Source: Candidatus Methanomethylophilaceae archaeon (lineage in GTDB: Archaea > Thermoplasmatota > Thermoplasmata > Methanomassiliicoccales > Methanomethylophilaceae). Taken from it: a stretch of 64,000 bases of DNA. Below are positions 10,867-46,228 of this stretch, piece after piece. Below the pieces are notes generated by a model. It was not told where the DNA came from and did not search any database. It saw only the letters and a list, made by a program, of their open reading frames with translations. Each line of letters starts with the position of its first letter. Within the stretch, counting starts at the first letter, position 1. Location: NCBI GenBank assembly GCA_050950505.1, contig JBMNHS010000001.1, positions 864,001 to 928,000 of the forward strand. The letters are read 5' to 3'. The translations under genes and the position numbers were made by a program.

Positions 10867-11943
10867 ATGAGGGATAACGTTAGTAAATTTGAAGAATACC
10901 GAAGGGGAAATTCCTCCAAAATACTCTTCATAATCGTGTGCGTCGTGCTGTTGTTGATAGCGGCGCTAGTGTCCCTCTCAGTCGGAACAAGAATAGGATT
11001 CGGCAGAACTGCCGAGGTTGTGTTCAACCATTTAACCGGAGTGACGTATCCCAAAAGGTCGCCAGAATGGTGGGAAGATTACTATATTTTTCAAAACGTA
11101 ATGCCTGAAGTCGTGGTGGCGATCATAGCGGGAGCGGGTCTCGCAGTCACCGGAGTCATCATGCAGAGCATAATGAACAACCCCTTGGCAGATCCATACA
11201 CCACAGGTATTTCCTCAGGCGCCAGTCTTGGAGCCGTAACTGCCATAATAATGGGTTACACATTCAGTTCCATCGCAGGTGAAATGGGCATTGTGTCCAA
11301 TGCATTCATCGGCGCAATGGTTCCAGCGCTGATTATTATTCTGTTATCGAAACGAGTGGGCAATTCTCCGGCGACGATTATCCTCATTGGTACTGCAATC
11401 TCATATTTCTTCAATGCTTTGACAACGCTGATTATGATTACCGCCGATTCTGAAGCCCTCCAATCGGCGTATATGTGGCAGATAGGCAGTGTTGCCGGTG
11501 TTTCATGGAGCAGCATACCTTTGATGCTGGTAATTGTGACGGCTTCTTCGATTTTTGCAATTTTGCTTTCCCGATCGTTGAACCTTATGACATTGGGTGA
11601 TGAAAGCGCAAGATCGCTGGGTATGGATGCGGAAAGGCTCAGGATGGTATGCATCATGGTTTCTTCATTTCTCATTGCGTCCATCGTCAGTTATACAGGA
11701 ATAATAGGATTTGTAGGTCTGGTTTCCCCCCATATAGTAAGATTTGTTGTAGGAAGCGACAACAGATTTGTTATCCCCGCATCAATAGTCGCGGGGGCGC
11801 TTTTGCTCACGGTGGCGTTGATGCTGTCCCGCTTGCTCAATTCCTTCGGATACATTCCGATAGGTGTGGTCGTTTCGTTCATAGGGGCACCCATATTCCT
11901 GTATCTCGTGGTCCGGGACAAGTCGGGGAGGGAGATATGGTGA
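10867..11943 (+). CDS. FecCD/BtuC family ABC permease
   Basis: NNPLADPYTTGISSGA, LGDESARSLG, GIIGFVGLVSPH, GAPIFL. Confidence 0.9.
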   Translation: MRDNVSKFEEYRRGNSSKILFIIVCVVLLLIAALVSLSVGTRIGFGRTAEVVFNHLTGVTYPKRSPEWWEDYYIFQNVMPEVVVAIIAGAGLAVTGVIMQSIMNNPLADPYTTGISSGASLGAVTAIIMGYTFSSIAGEMGIVSNAFIGAMVPALIIILLSKRVGNSPATIILIGTAISYFFNALTTLIMITADSEALQSAYMWQIGSVAGVSWSSIPLMLVIVTASSIFAILLSRSLNLMTLGDESARSLGMDAERLRMVCIMVSSFLIASIVSYTGIIGFVGLVSPHIVRFVVGSDNRFVIPASIVAGALLLTVALMLSRLLNSFGYIPIGVVVSFIGAPIFLYLVVRDKSGREIW

Positions 11944-13001
11944 ATTCCAAATCCTTGCAGAAGAAAATGTACCTGTCTTCTGCCCGTAAAAAAATAATGT
12001 TCATATTATTATGTGCGATACTGACGGTTATTGTATTCATATACTATCTCAAAGTGGGATTTTATTCGACGACCATGTCGGATATTTTCGAAATAATATC
12101 CGCGCATTTCACAGGCAAAGAAGTCGATTATCAGGCAGATTTGATTATATGGGGTAAAAGAATCCCTCGTGCAATAATGGCCGTATTCTGCGGAGCCAGC
12201 CTTGCGGTCGGAGGGGCAGTTATACAGACGGTGTTAAGAAATCCCCTTACGGATTCTTACACCACAGGCATATCTTCCGGAGCCTTTCTCGGAGTAACGT
12301 TGTTCCTAATACTGGATATATCGTTAATCCCATCCGCTCAGAACCTGTCGCTAGTGTTCAATGCCTTTTTGTTTTCATTGATACCTGTTGCCGCAATATT
12401 GGTGGTTTCAGGAAAGAAGCGGGTGACGGCGTCCAGACTGATACTCACCGGAATAGCGGTCATGTATTTGTTTTCGGCAACGTCGACTTTGCTGATGGTT
12501 TCGACAGACCATGAGACTCTCTCCGAAGCATATTCCTGGAGAATAGGCACGCTTGCAAACACCGGTTGGATATCCGTACCCATTGTCGTGACGGTCACCG
12601 TCATATGCATTCTGTTTCTGTTCAGCAAATCCAGGGAATTCAACATTGTTTCGGCCGGCGAGAAAGTTGCACAATCCCTCGGTGTCAATTCGAAAAAAGT
12701 CACCGTCATGGCTTTGATTGTCGTGGCCTTCATGACGGCGAGTTCCGTCAGTTTCACGGGAACAATAGGATTCGTCGGACTGGTCGCTCCTCATATCTCA
12801 AGAATTTTCATTGGATCCGATTGCAGATATCTGATCCCGGCATCGGCCTTCGTCGGAGCTTTGTTTTTATTGTCAATGGATGCAATTGCGAAAGTTTCCG
12901 GAGATTTGGGACTGCCTGTGGGAGTCATCAGTGCACTGATAGGTGCGCCGCTGTTCGTGATAATTCTGGTAAAAAACAAAAAAACAGCCTGGGATATATG
13001 A
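11937..13001 (+). CDS. FecCD/BtuC family ABC permease (second)
   Basis: RIPRAIMA, RNPLTDSYTTGISSGA, GTIGFVGLVAPH. Likely start MVNSKS overlapping the previous stop. Confidence 0.9.
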   Translation: MVNSKSLQKKMYLSSARKKIMFILLCAILTVIVFIYYLKVGFYSTTMSDIFEIISAHFTGKEVDYQADLIIWGKRIPRAIMAVFCGASLAVGGAVIQTVLRNPLTDSYTTGISSGAFLGVTLFLILDISLIPSAQNLSLVFNAFLFSLIPVAAILVVSGKKRVTASRLILTGIAVMYLFSATSTLLMVSTDHETLSEAYSWRIGTLANTGWISVPIVVTVTVICILFLFSKSREFNIVSAGEKVAQSLGVNSKKVTVMALIVVAFMTASSVSFTGTIGFVGLVAPHISRIFIGSDCRYLIPASAFVGALFLLSMDAIAKVSGDLGLPVGVISALIGAPLFVIILVKNKKTAWDI

Positions 13002-33886: not shown

Positions 33887-34155
33887 TGTTTGTCATCTCC
33901 GAATTTCGGATCGGAAATGAACCGTTCTTCAGCGCTTACGCTAAGATTATCCAACAATGTGAGTCGCAGGATCGACCCGGGGTTTGGATACCGCGGGGTT
34001 TTCTTAGCGTATGGGCCTTTACTTTACGGATTTTCTTTTATTTTATATCCGTATTTTTATCGAACGGCTCAATTCTGACCGAACTCAGATACCTGTGTGT
34101 TTTTGAAACGCCCAGGTATCAAGGCAGAATTTGCCACGTTCGGCATTATATAAAT
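33887..34155 (-). promoter_or_regulatory. TATA box plus ~230-nt structured 5' leader of the opuA operon
   Basis: TTTATATA near 34150 on the minus strand followed by stems GATACCTG/CAGGTATC, TACGGAT/ATCCGTA, TACGCTAAGA/TCTTAGCGTA, TATCCAA/TTGGATA. Confidence 0.5.
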
Positions 34156-34568
34156 AATGTAGGATTTGGAGATTTTTTGTGAAAATCGGTCGATTCATGC
34201 GGCAAAATCAACCTAAAAAACATACAAAAGTTATTTTTCAATCAATAAAATATGTTCTTCAGACAATCCGATGCGGAACGTTTAATCTCGGAATCCTTGA
34301 AAATTTCGTTGAAACATAAACAAACAATCCAGCATACGTTGAATAATAAATATCTTTGAATTTCGGCATATCTTCGACTTTAGACGATATAATTCTCGGT
34401 CATTAAGCGGAAATATACGTAAACTCTGATGTATTTTCGTTATTCGTACAAATTTGAGAATCTGTGTAATCCGAGTTATTTTTACGTTAAATGCAGTAAA
34501 TACGCATATTATATACGAAATTCGTAGAATAGTTGGGTATATATACAATGAGTGCGTTAATAGAGATT

Positions 34569-34760
34569 GAGGTGAGACCCAATTTCAAAACGTAAAGACA
34601 CTAGGATCTGCGGCGAAGACATGAACGAGGCATTATGTTCGTTGGTAGAGAAATGGCCGGTCGGCACCTCTCGATGCGGATAAGCGAAATTCATGTCTGC
34701 AAGACCCGACTGATGACCGCAACAAACCCCCTGCCCTTTGGGGCAGGGATTTCTTTCTCT
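34569..34760 (+). ncRNA. Candidate pseudoknotted RNA/leader with terminal hairpin upstream of cas3
   Basis: Stems GAGGTG/CACCTC and TGCGG/CCGCA, 9-bp cross pairing AGACATGAA/TTCATGTCT, hairpin CCCTGCCC-TTTG-GGGCAGGG plus pyrimidine tract; TATATATA about 25 nt upstream. Confidence 0.45.
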
Positions 34761-34858
34761 CTGAACATTTCTCTCGGTTTACACATTCTGAGATTTTTAT
34801 CGTCTGTTTATATAGAGTTATACGCTACCGTTAAATGCAAACATATTGCTGAATCAGT

Positions 34859-37660
34859 ATGAACTCCGTCGGAGGGGATGTAAAGACCAATCGGGTTCCT
34901 TTTGATGATTTATCTGATATGAGTACATCATTGTGGGCAAAAGTTTCACAGACCGTCGGTGATGTAAGTTGGCTTCCTCTTGTTGCTCATATGCATGACG
35001 CGGGATACGTTTCGTAGTGTATTTGGAGAAGATGGCTTCCGGAGTCAACTAGAAAACTAATCGAAGATGGAATTTACACGGAGGACGGACATAAATTAAC
35101 TCCGGATGTGGTTGAACGGATTCTTAAATTCGTTTCAACAACACATGATATCGGAAAAGCCACCCCCGCTTTTCAGGGGAAAATGATTTTTCAAAATCCG
35201 GATGTTCAGATTGAATGCAGGAGAAGGTTAGACGCGTCCGGAATACCAATGAGGTATGACTTGGACAATCCGAACTTGATTCCACATTCATTTGCTTCGC
35301 AATATATCCTTGAAAGCAGAGGTATAGATCGAAGCGTTGCCTCTATTGTCGGTGGCCATCATGGCACATTTCCGAACAGAGATGAGTTTAGAAAAATAAG
35401 TTCATTTAAAAATCATACAGGCGTTGGGAACAAAAAATGGGATGACATTCACGACGAACTCTTGGGGTATTCACTTTATGTTTCAGAGTTGGATTATGAA
35501 TCCATTTCAAGTTTGAAAATTGCAGTTCATTCTCAGATATTGCTTACGGCCCTGGTGATAATGTCTGATTGGATATCAAGCAATGAGTATGATTTTCCTT
35601 ATGATGAGGAGTTCACTTATTCAAATTCAATTTTAAAAGAACGGGCCATCAAAGGATGGGACCGTCTCAGTATCCCATCTATTTGGACGCCGGACACCGA
35701 TGGTATTGTGGACATTCTTTATCAGAGTCGTTTCGGATTCAATCCCAGACCTTTTCAAAAATCCATTTTGGATATATTGAACAATATAAATTCCCCCGGA
35801 CTCATTATTTTAGAAGCACCGATGGGTGAAGGTAAGACCGAGGCTGCACTTGCGGCAGCTGAGATATTGGCAGATCGGTTTGGAAAAAGCGGGTTATTTT
35901 TCGCATTGCCGACACAGGCAACGTCTGATGGAATTTTTGACAGAGTCAAAAATTGGATGGAGAAAGCCGTGGGAAAATACAGCGATGAGAAGCACTCACT
36001 GTTTTTGGCGCATGGTAAATCCAGATTTAACGAATCATACACTTCATTGTATCAAAAGAAGTGGAACGTCGGTTCGACAAATGAAAATCACAATGGAAAC
36101 GTCATCGTTCACGATTGGTTCAATGGGAGAAAAAAAGGTATTCTTTCCGATGTTGTCGTGGGAACCGTTGATCAAATACTCATGGCAAGTTTAAAACAGA
36201 AACATCTTGTATTGAGGCATCTGGGACTTGCGAACAAAGTAGTGATAATCGACGAATGTCATGCATATGATACATACATGGGAAGTTACCTGGTAAAGAC
36301 ATTGAGGTGGCTGGGCGCATATAAAGTACCGGTGATCCTGTTATCTGCAACACTTCCCCCCAATATACGTTATGATTTTGTGAAAGGATACATGTTCTGT
36401 GGTACGAACAATGAGCCCGCGTCTCTCGATTGGGTTCATAATAAAAACTACCCCCTGTTGACTTATGCAGATTCAGAAGGGATATTTCAGAACGCTCCCG
36501 AGAGCTCGGGCCGCACAGTAAAAATCAATATCGAAAACATTTCTGATGAAGATATATTAGGGATTTTGGAAGATCACACTTCTGAGGGGGGATTTGTGGG
36601 CATAATATTAAACACAGTTAATCGAGCACAAGAATTATCTAAAAAGCTTTCAGATCGCTTCGGCGAAGAGCAGATTCAACTGATACATTCCCGTTTTACT
36701 AACATAGATCGTTCCGTGAAAGAAGCAAAACTTCTCGAAATTCTTGATAAAGGAAATCGATTATCTCCCGGAAATAGGTTATTTGTCATAGGTACGCAAG
36801 TAATAGAACAATCTCTCGATTTGGATTTTGATTTACTTATAACTGATTTATGTCCTATGGATCTCCTGATACAACGTATGGGAAGACTGCACAGACATAT
36901 TCGAAAAAGATCTGCGAAAATGCATCTTCCATTGTGTTATGTTTTGGACAATGGTAAAGGGGATTTCGAACCGGGCGCCGAGAGCGTTTACGGAAAATAT
37001 CACCTTATGAACTCGAGAGAATTGCTCAGGTTACGAAAAACTATCAATTTCCCTGATGAAATTCCTTTTTTGGTGCATGCGGCATACGACGTCAACGGAA
37101 TTCCCATGCCGGAGGCCCTCAGGGACGAATATGATTGCGCGCACAAAGAATTGGAACAAAAGATGATCGATAAAGAACGCAGAGCAAAGGTTTTCCAAAT
37201 CAAACATCCTGAAAAAACGAAAAATCTCATGGGTTGGACGGAGGGTTCGGGAAGTGATACTGAAAGGGCTGCACAGGCAACAGTCAGGGATGTAAACAGT
37301 TCTTTGGAAGTAATCGTTGTCCGAAAAGACGATGAAGGAAATTTTAGAATGATTTCATCTGTGTCGGAGGATGACGGTTCTGTGATTCCTTCAGATTCGG
37401 TTCCTGATGGAAAATTGGCCTTCAGGCTTGCAGGATGCAAAGTCTCTCTTCCCGGATTTCTGTCTGCAGATTGGAAAATAGATGAAACGATACGTTATCT
37501 CGAAATGAGAAACAGTAAAGAAATTCCCAAATGTTGGCAGGAATCGGAATGGCTGAACGGAGAATTATTCTTGTTGCTTGATAACAGCGGTATCACAACT
37601 GTTATATCATATTCACTGAGGTATGACACCAAGTTCGGGTTGATGATGGTTTATGAATGA
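34859..37660 (+). CDS. cas3: CRISPR type I-E Cas3 (HD nuclease + SF2 helicase) with in-frame TAG at 35015-35017 (probable pyrrolysine)
   Basis: Upstream in-frame segment SLWAK...WLPLVAHMHDAGYVS*CIWRRWLP continues into HDIGKATPAFQ, APMGEGKTEAAL, DECHAYD, LSAT, QRMGRLHRH. Start may be 34859 or 34919. Confidence 0.88.
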
Positions 37661-39221
37661 TGTCGATTTCAATCTCCTGTACGAGCCGTGGATATCTGTA
37701 ATGGACTATGAAGGAAAAATTCTTCAAATGGGTATCATGGATACGTTGAATCAAGCTCATAAAATCAAATCATTGGCTGGGGAAACCCCGACACAGGATG
37801 TAACGATTATACGTTTATTACTGGCAATAATATCTGCAATTTATCTTCGGACGGACTCTGATGGGACAAAGGCCCATTTGACGGACGAAGAGGATGCCGT
37901 TGAAAGATGGGGTCGATTATGGGAAAGAAACCGATTTGATTCCGAACACGTTCAGCAGTATCTGGTTGGATTCGAAGACAGATTCTATTTGTTCCACCCC
38001 AAATTTCCCTTTTATCAATCTCCTATTGAAAAAGGTACAGAGTATACATCACCCAAACTCATCGGAGATCTTCTGGAAAGCAGTAATAAACTTCGATTGT
38101 TCAGTAACAGAAACGGTGCCGGCAAAGTCAAAATCTCTTACGCTGAGGCGGCACGCTGGATACTTCATCTGAACGCGTTCGATGACACCTCTGCAAAGCC
38201 TACGGTAAGGGGAGGCAATATGCCATCTCCGGGTGCAGGGTGGTTGGGCAAGTTAGGTCTTATATATGCGGAAGGAAAGAATCTCTTTGAAACTCTGATG
38301 CTGAATTTTGTAATGACCGATCATAATTATGATCCTTTTCCGGATGGAAAGGCCATATGGGAGTCCAGCCCCCGCATCGAGGAAAGGGTAATCATACCCA
38401 TGCCCGAAAGTCCGTTGGAAATAATGACATTACAATCCCGCAGAATATTGTTGAAGCGTGAAGAGGGTTTCGTAACAGGATATATTCTGATGGGCGGGGA
38501 CATAGTTGACAGAGAAAATGCTCTGATAGAGCAAATGACTGTGTGGAGAAAGGATAAAACGGGCGCATGGTTGCCTAAAAGACACGATCCATCCCGATTG
38601 ATGTGGAGGGATTTTTCCGCAATGATGTCAGGATTTGAAGATAATATAAAACCCGGCGTTGTAAGATGGATTTCTTCACTCGTAGCGGAAGACTTGCTTC
38701 CGGATGAATTTTTAACCTTCAGAATCACAGGAATAAAATACGGAGATAAGGATTTTTTTGCCGAAGACACGATAGACGACGGAATGGTATTCAATGCCGA
38801 ACTTCTGAGTTCTCTCGGAGAATCATGGATTCATAGAATTTCAAACCTGATAAAGAGAACAGAAGAATCCATCTATGCCTTCGGTACGTTCGCACGAAAT
38901 TTATCAATTGACAGCGGCAACGACGCGGAAGGTAAAAGTGCAAAAAATGCTTCCGCATCTGCAAGAGAAATGGCATATTTCCATTTGGATATGCCTTTCA
39001 GACGATGGCTTCAATCTATAAATCCCGTGTCTGATGATGAAGAGAGCCGGTTGAATGAGTGGACCGGGTTAGTATACTCTGTTTTGGTGGACAATCTCGG
39101 AAAACAATTACTTGAGGATGCAGGAGTCCAGGCCATGGTGGGCAGCAGTCTGCAAAACAATTCAATTTCCAGGTACAGACTGTTCAGAAACAGTGTTCGC
39201 AAGATTCTTAGAGGTGATTAA
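37653..39221 (+). CDS. cse1: Type I-E Cascade large subunit Cas8e/Cse1
   Basis: FNLLYEPWI, DRFYLFHPKFPFYQ, GWLGKLG, GKNLFETLMLN. Confidence 0.92.
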   Translation: MNDVDFNLLYEPWISVMDYEGKILQMGIMDTLNQAHKIKSLAGETPTQDVTIIRLLLAIISAIYLRTDSDGTKAHLTDEEDAVERWGRLWERNRFDSEHVQQYLVGFEDRFYLFHPKFPFYQSPIEKGTEYTSPKLIGDLLESSNKLRLFSNRNGAGKVKISYAEAARWILHLNAFDDTSAKPTVRGGNMPSPGAGWLGKLGLIYAEGKNLFETLMLNFVMTDHNYDPFPDGKAIWESSPRIEERVIIPMPESPLEIMTLQSRRILLKREEGFVTGYILMGGDIVDRENALIEQMTVWRKDKTGAWLPKRHDPSRLMWRDFSAMMSGFEDNIKPGVVRWISSLVAEDLLPDEFLTFRITGIKYGDKDFFAEDTIDDGMVFNAELLSSLGESWIHRISNLIKRTEESIYAFGTFARNLSIDSGNDAEGKSAKNASASAREMAYFHLDMPFRRWLQSINPVSDDEESRLNEWTGLVYSVLVDNLGKQLLEDAGVQAMVGSSLQNNSISRYRLFRNSVRKILRGD

Positions 39222-39222
39222 T

Positions 39223-39819
39223 TTGACAAAATCTGATATGATATATAATTTTGTTAATGAGAAGATAGGCATATTGCAAACGGGAAGTCCCTGGTCTAAA
39301 GCAATGTTGGCAAAATTAAGAAGAGGAGTGGGTAAGGAACCTTCAGAATCATACGAGACGTGGGAAATCACGTTAAACGGGATTCCTGAGGAGTTGACCG
39401 GTTTTGAAGGAGTCGGAGATTTTGAGGCCAATGAGGCAGAAATGGCAATACACGTGGCTTTGACGTTATACGCACTTCATCAACAAGGTAACTCATTGCC
39501 GGTGAATTCATACAATAAATCCTTTGCCGCATCCATAAGAAGTCTCATAAATACTGACAAGTCCAATGAGGATGCAATCAAAAGACGGTTTGACGCAATC
39601 ATCACATCCGATACCTTGATGGAATTATCAACTCATGCCAGAGGACTTGTTCAGTTGATGAAAGCATCGGAGAACACATCATTCAATTACCCCTTATTTG
39701 CAAAAGATCTCTATTTCTTCCAATATCCGGAAGGTAAAAAAACAGTTCGTTTGCGATGGGGGCTGGATTTTTATAAAGTACGTATGAACGAACCTATGAA
39801 AAAGGAGGAAGAAGAGTGA
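39223..39819 (+). CDS. cse2: Type I-E small subunit Cas11/Cse2
   Basis: LAKLRRGVGK, ALTLYALHQQ, RRFDA, WGLDFY; TTG start after GAGGTGA. Confidence 0.9.
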   Translation: MTKSDMIYNFVNEKIGILQTGSPWSKAMLAKLRRGVGKEPSESYETWEITLNGIPEELTGFEGVGDFEANEAEMAIHVALTLYALHQQGNSLPVNSYNKSFAASIRSLINTDKSNEDAIKRRFDAIITSDTLMELSTHARGLVQLMKASENTSFNYPLFAKDLYFFQYPEGKKTVRLRWGLDFYKVRMNEPMKKEEEE

Positions 39820-40922
39820 AAAACAGAATATTTGTAGATTTGCACGTTATTCAAACAGTACCGCCCAGTTGTGTGAACAGGGATGATACGGGAAGCCCCA
39901 AAACGGCTATGTACGGCGGAGTTCGCAGAGCCCGTGTTTCCTCTCAGAGCTGGAAAAAGGCAATCAGAGATCAGTTCAAGGAAGAATTTGACGAATCTGA
40001 GTTGGGAATACGCACCTTGAACGCAGTCGATGTGATTGCTGACAAAATACGTTCCATCGATACAGCCCTCTCCAAAGAAGAAGCGGTGGGGAAAGCAGCA
40101 GGCGTTCTTAGAGTCGCAGGTATTAAATTGGACACGAAGAAGAAAAAAGATACGGAGTCAGAAGAAAATCTCCGTACGGGAGCGTTATTTTTTATCAGTT
40201 CCAAACAGGCAGAGAATATGGCCGCTTTGGCGTTGACTGAGAACTATTCTAAAAAAGACGCACAAGAGGCGCTGAACAAAGGCAACGGAGTAGACATAGC
40301 TCTGTTCGGCAGAATGGTCGCCGACGATCCGTCATTGAATTCCGACGCATCAGCCCAAGTTGCTCATGCGATATCAACTCATAAGGTTGACACGGAATAC
40401 GATTATTTTACGGCAATAGATGATAGGTCTCCCGCAGACAACGCGGGTGCCGGAATGATCGGTACCGTTGAATTCAATTCTTCTACGCTATACCGGTACG
40501 CGACAGTTTCAGTTCATGACCTGTACAACAGATTGGAATGCAATAAAGAGATGACTTCGAAAGCCATAACCGAATTCATAAAAGCATTCATGCTCAGTAT
40601 GCCCACAGGAAAACAGAATACGTTTGCAAACAGAACGGTTCCCAATGCCGCTATAATCGCAATCAGAGACGATCAACCAATCAATCTCGTCAGCGCATTC
40701 GAATCTCCCGTAGGTACAAACAAATCCTCAATCGGGTACCTGGACGAATCAATAGACAGATTAATCAAAGAAAAGGAAGAAGCAACTTCTTCCTTTGTCA
40801 AGAAATCCAAGAAAACTTGGCAGATCGGAAAAGGTCTTGATGCATTGGGGCCTTCTGCTGATGTGGAAACCACCATTTCCGAAATAGAAGACTACCTCAA
40901 TGGGGAATTAGGTGAATGGTGA
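39816..40922 (+). CDS. cas7: Type I-E Cas7/Cse4
   Basis: PPSCVNRDDTGSPKTA, RARVSSQSWK, DIALFGRMVA, DYFTAIDD, PTGKQNTFA. Confidence 0.95.
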   Translation: MKNRIFVDLHVIQTVPPSCVNRDDTGSPKTAMYGGVRRARVSSQSWKKAIRDQFKEEFDESELGIRTLNAVDVIADKIRSIDTALSKEEAVGKAAGVLRVAGIKLDTKKKKDTESEENLRTGALFFISSKQAENMAALALTENYSKKDAQEALNKGNGVDIALFGRMVADDPSLNSDASAQVAHAISTHKVDTEYDYFTAIDDRSPADNAGAGMIGTVEFNSSTLYRYATVSVHDLYNRLECNKEMTSKAITEFIKAFMLSMPTGKQNTFANRTVPNAAIIAIRDDQPINLVSAFESPVGTNKSSIGYLDESIDRLIKEKEEATSSFVKKSKKTWQIGKGLDALGPSADVETTISEIEDYLNGELGEW

Positions 40923-41631
40923 CATTATTGTTGAGATTGGCCGGCCCTTTGCAATCCTGGGGGGTGGGTTCCAAGTTTGAAACCCGCACTACCTCGAAAG
41001 CACCCTCAAAGAGCGGAGTCTTGGGAATGGTCGCTTCTGCAATGGGACGCGACAGAGAAGATTCTCTCGATGATTTGGCATCTTTGAAATTCGGAGTGCG
41101 GATAGATCAGGAAGGAACGATTTTAAAGGATTTTCACACAGCGCACAGCGCGAGTCGCAAGACGGCATACGTGACAAACAGACATTATCTCGAAAATGGG
41201 TGTTTTTTAGTAGGCCTTGAAGGTGATGAAACATTACTGTTTAGAATCGAAGATGCGATAAAAAATCCCTTTTATCCTCTTTACCTGGGACGCAGGTCTT
41301 GTCCACCTACGGGCAGAATGATTTTGGGATTCAGAGACAAAGTGCTGTATGAAGCACTGAGGGATGAGCCGTGGTTGGCGTCAGAGTGGTATCGAAAACG
41401 GACTCCCTCCAATGTAATGTTGGAGATTGTATGCGAAGATGATTCCGATTTATTTTCGGAATCTGTCCGGGATGTGCCCCTCAGTTTTAGCCAAACCAGA
41501 AGAAAGCATGGTTTCAGGAATGTAAGAAGAGTTCTTGACGGAAAGACAATCGAAAATTCCGATTCCGGAATCAAAAAACCCATGAATGCACAATTCGATC
41601 CAATGTTCGAAGTAAAGAAGGAGGTTCGTTA

Positions 41632-41632
<1 letters not shown>
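40916..41632 (+). CDS. cas5: Type I-E Cas5
   Basis: LLLRLAGPLQSWG, PSKSGVLG, LYLGRRSCPP. Confidence 0.95.
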
Positions 41633-44047
<2,415 letters not shown>

Positions 44048-44133
44048 TCATCGGGTTTCAATTAAAGTTTTCATAAGTTTTCTGAGAAAAAATTATTTAT
44101 TTGAAAAAGTGTGGGTATATTGGGATTCTTAGT
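44048..44133 (+). promoter_or_regulatory. CRISPR leader
   Basis: 86-bp AT-rich segment between cas2 and the first repeat; degenerate repeats lie at the opposite end. Confidence 0.8.
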
Positions 44134-46228
44134 GTGGTCCCCGCGAAAGCGGGGGTGATCCTCATTCATGAAGCCTATCAGACGAAAACTCGGTGGTCCC
44201 CGCGAAAGCGGGGGTGATCCTATGAGAGACAGATAGAGATTATCGACAGGTGTGGTCCCCGCGAAAGCGGGGGTGATCCCCATGTTCATTGACACGCCAA
44301 TCGCAACAAGAAGTGGTCCCCGCGAAAGCGGGGGTGATCCTATTCTCCAACGACATCTTATCAGTTGCTATTCTAGTGGTCCCCGCGAAAGCGGGGGTGA
44401 TCCTCTCAGGCAACGTCACTTGTGGTATCCGACGTGTGGTCCCCGCGAAAGCGGGGGTGATCCTGGTAAGGTTCTTTTTCGTCCTCAAGTAGCACGTGGT
44501 CCCCGCGAAAGCGGGGGTGATCCTACGTAGCAACCATATGTTACGGGATGATATCCTTTGTGGTCCCCGCGAAAGCGGGGGTGATCCTCGGGTACATATC
44601 GTTCCTGATTATCTGGTTGAGTGGTCCCCGCGAAAGCGGGGGTGATCCTCAGGTGTAGATTCTGGACGGCTATAATCAGTGTGGTCCCCGCGAAAGCGGG
44701 GGTGATCCTCAGCACTGATTACAGCGAGAATGTCATACTAGTGGTCCCCGCGAAAGCGGGGGTGATCCTAGGTCCAGAACGACTTTTAAGACGTCTAATA
44801 GGGTGGTCCCCGCGAAAGCGGGGGTGATCCTAGTCCTTGACCGTCAGATATCAACATGTAGGTGGTCCCCGCGAAAGCGGGGGTGATCCTGAGAACTCGC
44901 AGCCGTCAACCGAGGAGGAGTGGTCCCCGCGAAAGCGGGGGTGATCCTATCAATAAGACTGTCCTATTATGTCGAATCGGGTGGTCCCCGCGAAAGCGGG
45001 GGTGATCCCCTCATCGTATGATCATCGAACTTCCACGGTGGTCCCCGCGAAAGCGGGGGTGATCCTGCAGCTGGTCAAGCACGATATAGGAAATGGTGGT
45101 CCCCGCGAAAGCGGGGGTGATCCTCTGTGATCTTCAACCGTTCCAAGTACCTCATTCTTTAAGTGGTCCCCGCGAAAGCGGGGGTGATCCTCGTCTAGAC
45201 TTCGCACTCTCGGTCAAGTCGGTGGTCCCCGCGAAAGCGGGGGTGATCCTACTTACATGTCTGCCGGAAATGATCGGTGCAATGACATGCGTGGTCCCCG
45301 CGAAAGCGGGGGTGATCCTAGATATGACTTAATTGATCTCATGTAATCAGTGGTCCCCGCGAAAGCGGGGGTGATCCCATACCCATGCGTCTTTATCGCG
45401 GAGTCTGGTGGTCCCCGCGAAAGCGGGGGTGATCCTGAGGCAACCAATAGCAATTAAGGGTCAGGTCGGTGGTCCCCGCGAAAGCGGGGGTGATCCTACT
45501 TGACCAAAGACGGTTCAGGATGCCGATTGGTGGTCCCCGCGAAAGCGGGGGTGATCCTGACCACCTACACCACAACCCAGATATCTGATGGTGGTCCCCG
45601 CGAAAGCGGGGGTGATCCCTTGGTCAAATCGACGGCGAATTTTGTCGGCTCGTGGTCCCCGCGAAAGCGGGGGTGATCCTACTTGCAGGCTATTAGCCGT
45701 GTAATGTCGGGCGTGGTCCCCGCGAAAGCGGGGGTGATCCCTCAGTAGGATAGTCAAGGCGACTGACGGCGTAGTGGTCCCCGCGAAAGCGGGGGTGATC
45801 CCGCATACCGCGAACGCAGGCTGGGGAGAACTGGGTGGTCCCCGCGAAAGCGGGGGTGATCCTATCCCGATAACGATTAGAGACAGGGAAATCAAGTGGT
45901 CCCCGCGAAAGCGGGGGTGATCCTTATATGCATATCTTGTAATATCTCTGTATGCCGTGGTCCCCGCGAAAGCGGGGGTGATTCTTGCTTGTAGAGTCCG
46001 CCGAGTTTTTTCATGTGGTGGTCCCCGCGAAAGCGGGGGTGATCCTCTGCCCTGTGGGTGCGCTTATCGATGAACCCTGTGGTCCCCGCAAAAGCGGGGG
46101 TGATCCCGGATTTATTGTTTTTGCTACTGTGTACAGTATGTGGTCCCCGCGAAAGCGGGGGTGATCCTGGGAGTATGAGTTGGAAAAACACCTAGCACCG
46201 GTGGTCCCCGCGAAAGCGGGGGTGATTC
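44134..46228 (+). CRISPR. Type I-E CRISPR array, 35 repeats / 34 spacers, repeat GTGGTCCCCGCGAAAGCGGGGGTGATCC (28 nt)
   Basis: Repeat starts counted by hand from 44134 to 46201; hairpin CCCCGC-GAAA-GCGGGG; variants at repeats 31, 33 and 35. Confidence 0.99.

Follow-up and report, generated by a model that had tools for sequence, protein, structure and literature searches.

In type I-E systems of CRISPR (clusters of regularly interspaced, short palindromic repeats) and their Cas proteins, the length of a new spacer is taken to be set by the Cas1-Cas2 integrase, and nucleases are taken only to trim the incoming DNA to the footprint of that complex. In Escherichia coli K-12, where Cas1-Cas2 acts as such a ruler, trimming is done by the host exonucleases DnaQ and ExoT, and the first base of the spacer is carried over from the side of the protospacer-adjacent motif (PAM). 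The present report concerns a type I-E locus in a 64,000-nt stretch of DNA (the window) from a Candidatus Methanomethylophilaceae archaeon (contig JBMNHS010000001.1, positions 864,001 to 928,000), in which an array of 35 repeats passes abruptly from old spacers of one length to new spacers of many lengths. The locus has the same subtype and gene set as that of E. coli, whose Cas2 is without the extra domain found here; to our knowledge, no natural E. coli array has a length spread such as the 29-41 nt of these new spacers.

The closest described systems do carry an extra domain on Cas2. In the I-E system of Streptococcus thermophilus DGCC7710 (CRISPR4; PDB 8hi1 and 8h2f; PMC10470216), Cas1 aligns over its full length with the archaeal protein (8hi1, E 7.5e-119), and the two systems share the counting convention of a 28-nt repeat and a 33-nt spacer, C or T as the first spacer base, and a DnaQ fold on Cas2 (8h2f, TMt 0.68). 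The S. thermophilus DnaQ domain is, however, active and more than 99% of new spacers are 33 bp, whereas in the archaeon the site is dead and the new spacers are 29-41 nt and mostly shorter. According to the sections of that paper used here, S. thermophilus mutants with a dead DnaQ domain acquire only slightly more spacers of 34-35 bp, and trimming in E. coli is cited as the work of host exonucleases. The Cas1:Cas2-DEDDh trimmer-integrase of Megasphaera (PDB 8fy9-8fyd) has the same fusion architecture (Cas1 E 7e-114), and its wedge residue His29, which in the portion of the preprint drawn on here (bioRxiv 10.1101/2023.01.23.522648) sets a duplex of 23 bp, aligns with a conserved His28 in the archaeal Cas1. 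The same portion describes the Megasphaera DEDDh domain as trimming within a ruler of single-nucleotide precision; in the archaeon that site is dead, but precision is lost only in the new part of the array.

Spacer lengths in the window and in other arrays

Between positions 44134 and 46228 the window holds 35 copies of the repeat GTGGTCCCCGCGAAAGCGGGGGTGATCC, each of them 28 nt long, with a hairpin of stem CCCCGC/GCGGGG and loop GAAA. Only repeats 31 and 33 and the terminal repeat 35 carry a substitution, a single one in each case. Counted with the 28-nt repeat, the 21 spacers nearest the leader (the new block) measure 31, 31, 33, 35, 32, 32, 36, 33, 32, 32, 34, 31, 30, 33, 29, 30, 39, 31, 41, 31 and 30 nt, and are followed by 13 consecutive spacers of 33 nt (the old block, spacers 22-34), with a constant period of 61 from 45408 to 46201. 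These lengths, the uniform run and its period had been read from the sequence in an earlier note on this DNA, and were reproduced exactly when the array was parsed again. Set against 33 nt, 13 spacers of the new block are shorter, five are longer and three are equal, with a range of 29-41 nt and a deviation of at least 2 nt in 13 of the 21. Given that 16 of the 34 spacers are 33 nt long, the probability that the last 13 would all have this length is 6e-7. A near-invariant length of 32-33 nt is the norm for type I-E arrays, as a property of such arrays and not a formal criterion of membership; it holds throughout spacers 22-34 (13/13) and does not hold for spacers 1-21 (3/21 at 33 nt). The first base, on the other hand, is constant in kind along the whole array: of the 34 spacers, 27 begin with T and the other seven with C, and no other base occurs in any of the 21 new ones.

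The array grows at the leader next to cas2. The AT-rich leader lies directly 3' of cas2 and the mutated repeats stand at the opposite end, and this polarity, already proposed in the earlier note, is upheld by a sister strain with the same terminal repeat and flank and by trailer-end spacers recovered in four studies. To read the array as a record in time, from 33-nt spacers at the trailer end to spacers of 29-41 nt at the leader end, is reasonable. Different target pools for the two blocks were considered and rejected, new spacers having a guanine-plus-cytosine (GC) fraction of 0.436 and old spacers one of 0.480 (p = 0.10). A single small target for the spacers was also rejected: overlaps of at least 8 nt join 15 pairs, against a mean of 9 and a maximum of 14 under the null, which is not convincing. 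Neither the repeat GTGGTCCCCGCGAAAGCGGGGGTGATCC nor any other CRISPR array was found elsewhere in the genome (two contigs, 1.33 Mb, 99.6% complete).

Twenty public sequencing runs from 16 studies carry part of the stretch, with a best word share of 0.49. Logan contigs from four runs, belonging to four studies (X1-X4), include pieces that span old spacers 24, 25, 27, 28 and 30-33 as well as the flanks, and the leader in runs X1-X3 is identical to that of the window. Runs X1, X2 and X4 also have other spacers between copies of the same repeat, and all 12 joint rows listed, which represent 10 distinct spacers, give 33 nt when summed by hand from the alignment coordinates. In a metagenome contig from a sister strain (L130), the array ends in the same degenerate terminal repeat and is followed by the same flank, with 12 mismatches and no gaps in 3670 nt downstream; its eight spacers all differ from those of the window, all begin with T or C, and are 33 nt in 8 of 8 cases. 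The terminal repeat and 33-nt spacers of L130, together with the old-block pieces from four studies, indicate that the lineage normally makes 33-nt spacers and that the old block is ancestral to several strains. As a separate observation, spacers 6 and 7 of L130 (reverse strand) are two consecutive identical 33-nt spacers.

Uniform lengths also prevail in wider surveys. In the same archaeal order (16 genomes, 18 arrays), the modal value accounts for 497 of 515 repeat periods; the other 18 are off by 1 nt, and none is off by 2 nt or more. A second survey covered 80 loci with homologues of Cas2(-DEDDh), taken from one-genome-per-species contigs, of which 59 had arrays (61 arrays, 1609 spacers). 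With lengths normalised to a 28-nt repeat, 1549 of these spacers are 33 nt long, 41 are 34, eight are 32 and 11 have other lengths, so that 1598 fall within 1 nt of 33; three of the 11 outliers (-7, 12 and 89) are parsing artefacts at degenerate repeats. The near-invariance of type I-E arrays on which the earlier note relied is borne out by both surveys. Two loci offer partial parallels. The isolate genome L072 has spacers of 18, 30, 35 and 39 nt among 85, and L067 has spacers of 37, 31 and 30 nt beside a 930-bp insertion. The latter is a Pelotomaculum I-E array (11437-12363; 12364-12695) interrupted by AT-rich DNA with one open reading frame (ORF), in which the three odd spacers come right after the insertion and the rest are all 33 nt. 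No array with the same or a related repeat and variable lengths was found among those examined; random mixtures of lengths in such arrays, which according to the earlier note would have told against a switch, were not seen, and the sister arrays have 33 nt only. A narrow literature search found no published natural I-E array with such a length spread. The pattern of an old uniform block and a new variable one is real in the sequence and highly unusual.

Integrase, leader and nucleases

Fifteen contigs of the collection encode one and the same Cas1 protein, and its gene in the window differs from that of an independent sister contig (L020), which is 99.5% identical without gaps over 4228 nt upstream of the array, by synonymous changes only. 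Four Cas1 residues that are unique against 84 homologues (A225S, V221I, D35E and N113D) were considered as the switch and rejected, all of them being present in L020, as is Cas2 P77T, which was set aside likewise. Cas2 differs from that of L020 at residues 138, 203, 209 and 213; four nucleotide differences fall within 30 nt (43854-43883, Cas2 codons 203-213), and all four are non-synonymous. Variation among seven Cas2 proteins from different strains is concentrated at residues 203, 209, 211 and 213, the remainder being almost invariant. I209 is the sole residue unique to the window among the seven; it is a conservative change, and V203 and Y213 occur in other variants. With Cas1 identical, Cas2 nearly so and the leader identical, the integrase and leader are essentially those of strains that make 33-nt spacers. 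A public bin that bears the label of a Bacilli bacterium contains the contig L020 (= L131; 4237 nt), which matches the archaeal cas locus at 99.5% identity; this is probably a binning error.

Cas2 is a protein of 266 aa in which the Cas2e domain (residues 1-84) is followed by a DnaQ-like fold. The predicted structure of the C-terminal domain has a predicted local distance difference test (pLDDT) score of ~85-93 and matches 2ido and 2gui in addition to 8h2f. Its DEDDh columns read D, G, S, gap and N in place of D, E, D, H and D, a set that is kept in 65 of the 81 other alignment rows longer than 200 residues; PF00929 gave no match in the window Cas2. The fusion family is mainly bacterial, and the nearest named homologues of this Cas2 are from Methanomethylophilaceae and a Methanosarcina bin. 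The same catalytic decay is found in all close homologues (40-52% identity), so the loss of the DEDDh site long predates this array. Arrays beside dead fusions are nonetheless uniform, with 146 of 146 spacers at 33 nt (68/68 in L021 of species G009, 54/54 in L056, 22/22 in L026 and 2/2 in L024). Since the dead domain is retained while such arrays stay at exactly 33 nt, it must, judging from these comparisons of sequence, have a non-catalytic role, with trimming carried out by another nuclease. The dead but folded domain (window 43610-44047, residues 122-266) is kept in the clade of close homologues, whose named members are archaeal, and is also present in a few bacterial loci (L022, L024 and L026).

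Loss of a host nuclease was rejected as a cause, as the host genome (G000) retains a DEDDh exonuclease with intact motifs (C2:97041-97604). A second DEDDh exonuclease occurs in three species of the genus, G009, G005 and G013 (L136 5162-5980, L137 5215-6033 and L138 5024-5764) and was not found in G000. Its protein identity of 97-99% between species suggests that it is probably mobile and no core factor.

Explanations for the change in length

The explanation favoured here, to which we give about an even chance, is that one integrase with an exact PAM-side cut made both blocks, and that definition of the PAM-distal end was lost through a change in trimming or shielding in trans or through gating by the dead DEDDh domain. 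The 13 oldest spacers would have been made at 33 nt (28-nt repeat count) under the normal Cas1-Cas2 ruler, and the 21 youngest would have been made by the same integrase. The T or C that begins every spacer is the PAM-side preference of type I-E, which argues that the same integrase handled the PAM side in both blocks; its persistence in the new spacers suggests that this cut is still exact and that it is the PAM-distal 3' end that varies. As Cas1 is identical to that of sister strains, Cas2 differs from all of theirs only at the conservative I209 and the leader is identical, the cause would most likely lie outside the integrase genes and act in trans. Candidates are a changed trimming or shielding of the PAM-distal overhang by a 3'-5' exonuclease of the host or of a mobile element, gating by the dead DEDDh domain, and a supply of DNA fragments of a different kind. 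The aberrant spacers are mostly short (13 against five long), which looks like lost protection or over-trimming and not like lost trimming. Slightly less than an even chance is given to the wider proposition that in this natural I-E lineage the Cas1-Cas2 ruler no longer governs spacer length, with Cas1 unchanged, owing to a trans factor or a dead DEDDh gate.

Several points weigh against the favoured explanation. The new block rests on one assembly, and none of spacers 1-21 was seen among the listed pieces of the contigs of four runs, which drop rare variants. The published ruler model, in the part of the preprint cited above, leaves unexplained how a fragment of 29-31 nt would reach both Cas1 active sites. 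Within the integrase itself, I209 of Cas2, or the combination V203/I209/H211/Y213, is a possible cause, and no candidate trans-acting factor was identified. Finally, no protospacer was found in viral_contigs, in 'phages', in the own genome or in 261 genomes of the order, so that the varying end and the PAM are inferred and not seen. Exact scans of viral_contigs with the cores of spacers 19, 17 and 7 gave 0 matches, and blastn of the array against 'phages' returned one record, 75% identical over scattered array pieces, with no match of spacer length. The spacers had no self-target and nothing longer than 17 nt in the own genome and all loci, and in the 261 genomes the array matched only other arrays and, in part, an mre11 gene. 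The Mre11 protein of the genome concerned (G095) had only relatives at 24-28% in viral_contigs, with no spacer match.

That partial match involves spacer 16 (30 nt, 45066-45095), which reads in frame as part of an mre11-like gene adjoining rad50 in G095 (L121 1501-1526). Seventeen nucleotides are exact, and on manual reading 26 of 29 positions agree with a one-codon indel. Being continuous and in frame, at least this short spacer is not garbled internally. Its 13-nt core recurs in a different 33-nt spacer of runs X1 and X2, and these sequences suggest a recurrent target carrying mre11-rad50. The 33-nt spacer of runs X1 and X2 derives from the same part of a related mre11-like gene. Spacer 20 shares a 12-nt prefix with a 33-nt spacer of run X2, which might hint at a mosaic but is given no weight, the aligner permitting mismatches and the placement being the best of many.

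The leading alternative, which we consider unlikely, is that the new block is an artefact, in which the leader end of the array would vary among the cells sampled and consensus building or polishing over mixed reads, anchored on identical repeats, produced mosaic spacers of odd length and left the shared old spacers clean. The odd lengths start exactly where demonstrable sharing with other strains ends, and none of the 21 new spacers is shown in any run; the word share of the top run (0.49) is about that estimated for the flanks and old block alone (0.48), and among the pieces listed for long spacers none exceeds 89 nt. The populations are heterogeneous at the array, with many alternative spacers in X1-X4 and a wholly different set in L130, the two contigs of the genome suggest a long-read assembly, and another locus (L067) also has spacers of 37, 31 and 30 nt. 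Against this, 7898 nt of flanks align with independent contigs free of indels, and all 22 new-block repeats are perfect. Insertions of up to 8 nt are in our judgement atypical of polishing errors, three of the new spacers are 33 nt long, and spacer 16 makes sense across its whole length as one in-frame piece of a gene. Moreover, the rare spacers of 30, 35 and 39 nt in an isolate genome (L072) indicate that odd lengths arise naturally.

Taken jointly, the four causes put forward in the earlier note are improbable and largely refuted. The first, loss of trimming by Cas2-DEDDh, starts from a domain that is indeed dead; it is dead in the whole clade, though, where arrays keep to 33 nt without exception, and the new spacers depart in the wrong direction, being mostly shorter. 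The second cause, transfer of the locus from a bacterium to an archaeon, might draw on the low GC of the cas island and on the mainly bacterial fusion family. The old block is nevertheless present in the same archaeal lineage and context in four studies, and relatives of the order have no period of 515 off by 2 nt or more, so a move from bacterium to archaeon does not mark the length boundary. For acquisition in trans by a second Cas1/Cas4, an adaptation module on a plasmid or virus since lost might be invoked; the search proposed for such genes found one cas1, no cas4 and one array in this 99.6% complete genome, and the T/C start is kept in all 21 new spacers. Relaxed selection after impairment of Cas3 would appeal to an in-frame TAG in cas3. 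This codon is, however, present in nine of nine strain variants and at the same position in species G009, whose array is 68/68 at 33 nt; PylS is encoded in the genome, and no selection can yield lengths outside what the integrase produces.

More doubtful still is a specific form of gating, in which the dead DEDDh domain controls the access of host exonucleases and the window allele (I209 with V203, H211 and Y213) does so poorly. Polymorphism among the seven variants is concentrated at residues 203-213, where all differences are non-synonymous, the domain is predicted to be well folded, and an inactive DnaQ has been proposed, in the sections used of PMC10470216, to hinder host exonucleases. Yet only V209I is unique to the window, and the positions 203-213 vary across the family. 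No more credible is recombination between arrays that brought in the whole new block at once from a strain or element with variable-length adaptation machinery. Recombination through identical repeats is easy, and within the lineage strains with identical flanks differ completely in their spacers; but a donor would have to possess this very 28-nt repeat, none of the arrays examined that have the same or a related repeat is variable, and the question would merely be shifted to the donor.

If length has indeed been uncoupled from the ruler in this lineage, the system would keep acquiring spacers of 29-41 nt with correct PAM-side processing, and the array would be a before-and-after record. A strain of this kind with an unchanged Cas1 and a nearly unchanged Cas2 would show that spacer length is not set by the integrase alone, and that the ruler can be overridden, for instance by a nuclease of the host, by a shielding domain or by the substrate. 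It would point to a hitherto unrecognised determinant of PAM-distal end definition in archaeal systems that lack Cas4, and would provide a near-identical pair of strains in which to find the overriding factor. The case also bears on the role of the widely retained dead DEDDh domain and on the natural length tolerance of Cascade. In the sections consulted of PMC6859484, the S. thermophilus Cascade accepts other, engineered spacer lengths and an R-loop of ~28 bp is enough for locking; as no spacer here is shorter than 29 nt, all of them could in principle guide interference. Engineered Cascades, as far as the cited parts of PMC6859484 and PMC5159557 go, were changed in designed steps of 6 nt, whereas the changes here are natural and run from -4 to +8 nt. 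Cascades of variable Cas7 stoichiometry, which the earlier note had deduced, need not be invoked where the change lies between -4 and +3 nt. If the new block were instead an artefact, it would be a useful caution on how far to trust CRISPR arrays when a genome has been assembled from a mixed population.

The cas operon and its genomic context

The locus holds a complete CRISPR-Cas system of type I-E in a small pyrrolysine-decoding methanogen. All eight genes match subtype-specific Pfam and NCBIfam models and form one operon (Table 1), and a GC-rich hairpin repeat of 28 nt follows cas2 after 86 nt, behind an AT-rich leader, as is typical of the subtype.

Table 1. Features of the type I-E locus, in window coordinates.
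Feature	Positions	Strand	Basis
cas3 (HD nuclease and helicase), in-frame TAG at 35015-35017	34859..37660	+	Pfam, NCBIfam; two stop-to-stop pieces in one frame
cse1/cas8e	37653..39221	+	PF09481 1.4e-93, TIGR02547
cse2/cas11e; true start probably further in	39112..39819	+	PF09485, TIGR02548
cas7e	39816..40922	+	PF09344 6e-118, TIGR01869
cas5e	40916..41632	+	PF09704, TIGR01868
cas6e	41632..42285	+	PF08798, TIGR01907
cas1e	42282..43250	+	TIGR03638 6e-108; PDB 8hi1, 8fy9 Cas1 E 1e-114 to 1e-119
cas2e fused to catalytically dead DEDDh (DnaQ-like) domain	43247..44047	+	Cas2e domain residues 1-84; DnaQ-like C-terminal fold
AT-rich leader, 86 nt	44048..44133	+	sequence; same letters in the contigs from runs X1-X3
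New block: spacers 1-21 (29-41 nt) with repeats 1-21	44134..45407	+	repeat/spacer parsing
Old block: spacers 22-34 (each 33 nt) with repeats 22-35; mutated repeats 31, 33	45408..46228	+	repeat/spacer parsing; Logan contig pieces
Degenerate terminal repeat (no. 35)	46201-46228	+	one substitution

The neighbouring genes are of housekeeping type and encode a betaine ATP-binding cassette (ABC) transporter, a PNPOx-like protein, aconitase and two transfer RNAs (tRNAs). The cas island (window 34001-44000) has a GC fraction of 0.40-0.45, compared with ~0.49 in the flanks and in the genome, and a Cas2e match is present in only 1 of 15 other genomes of the genus. From these two properties the cas locus was probably acquired horizontally.

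The TAG in cas3 stands directly after the first histidine motif of the HD domain (window 35015-35017; L012 2007-2009). Among the nine strain variants that share it, eight are called at the TAG-truncated length of 850 aa and that of the window at 879 aa, which is also shorter than the read-through product of 933 aa. The same codon is TAG in species G009 too, where the surrounding protein is 58% identical in amino acids, and other relatives have E, V, G, S or A. PylS is encoded in the genome (267 bits against a cut-off of 178); tRNA-Pyl was not found through the ARAGORN filter, which may simply miss it. Given PylS and the conservation of the in-frame TAG between orthologues, this codon probably specifies pyrrolysine, which would make Cas3 a pyrrolysine-containing protein. 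A comparable case is given in the part of Borrel et al. 2014 (PMC4153887) relevant here, where pyrrolysine was predicted in the Cas1 of a related archaeon.

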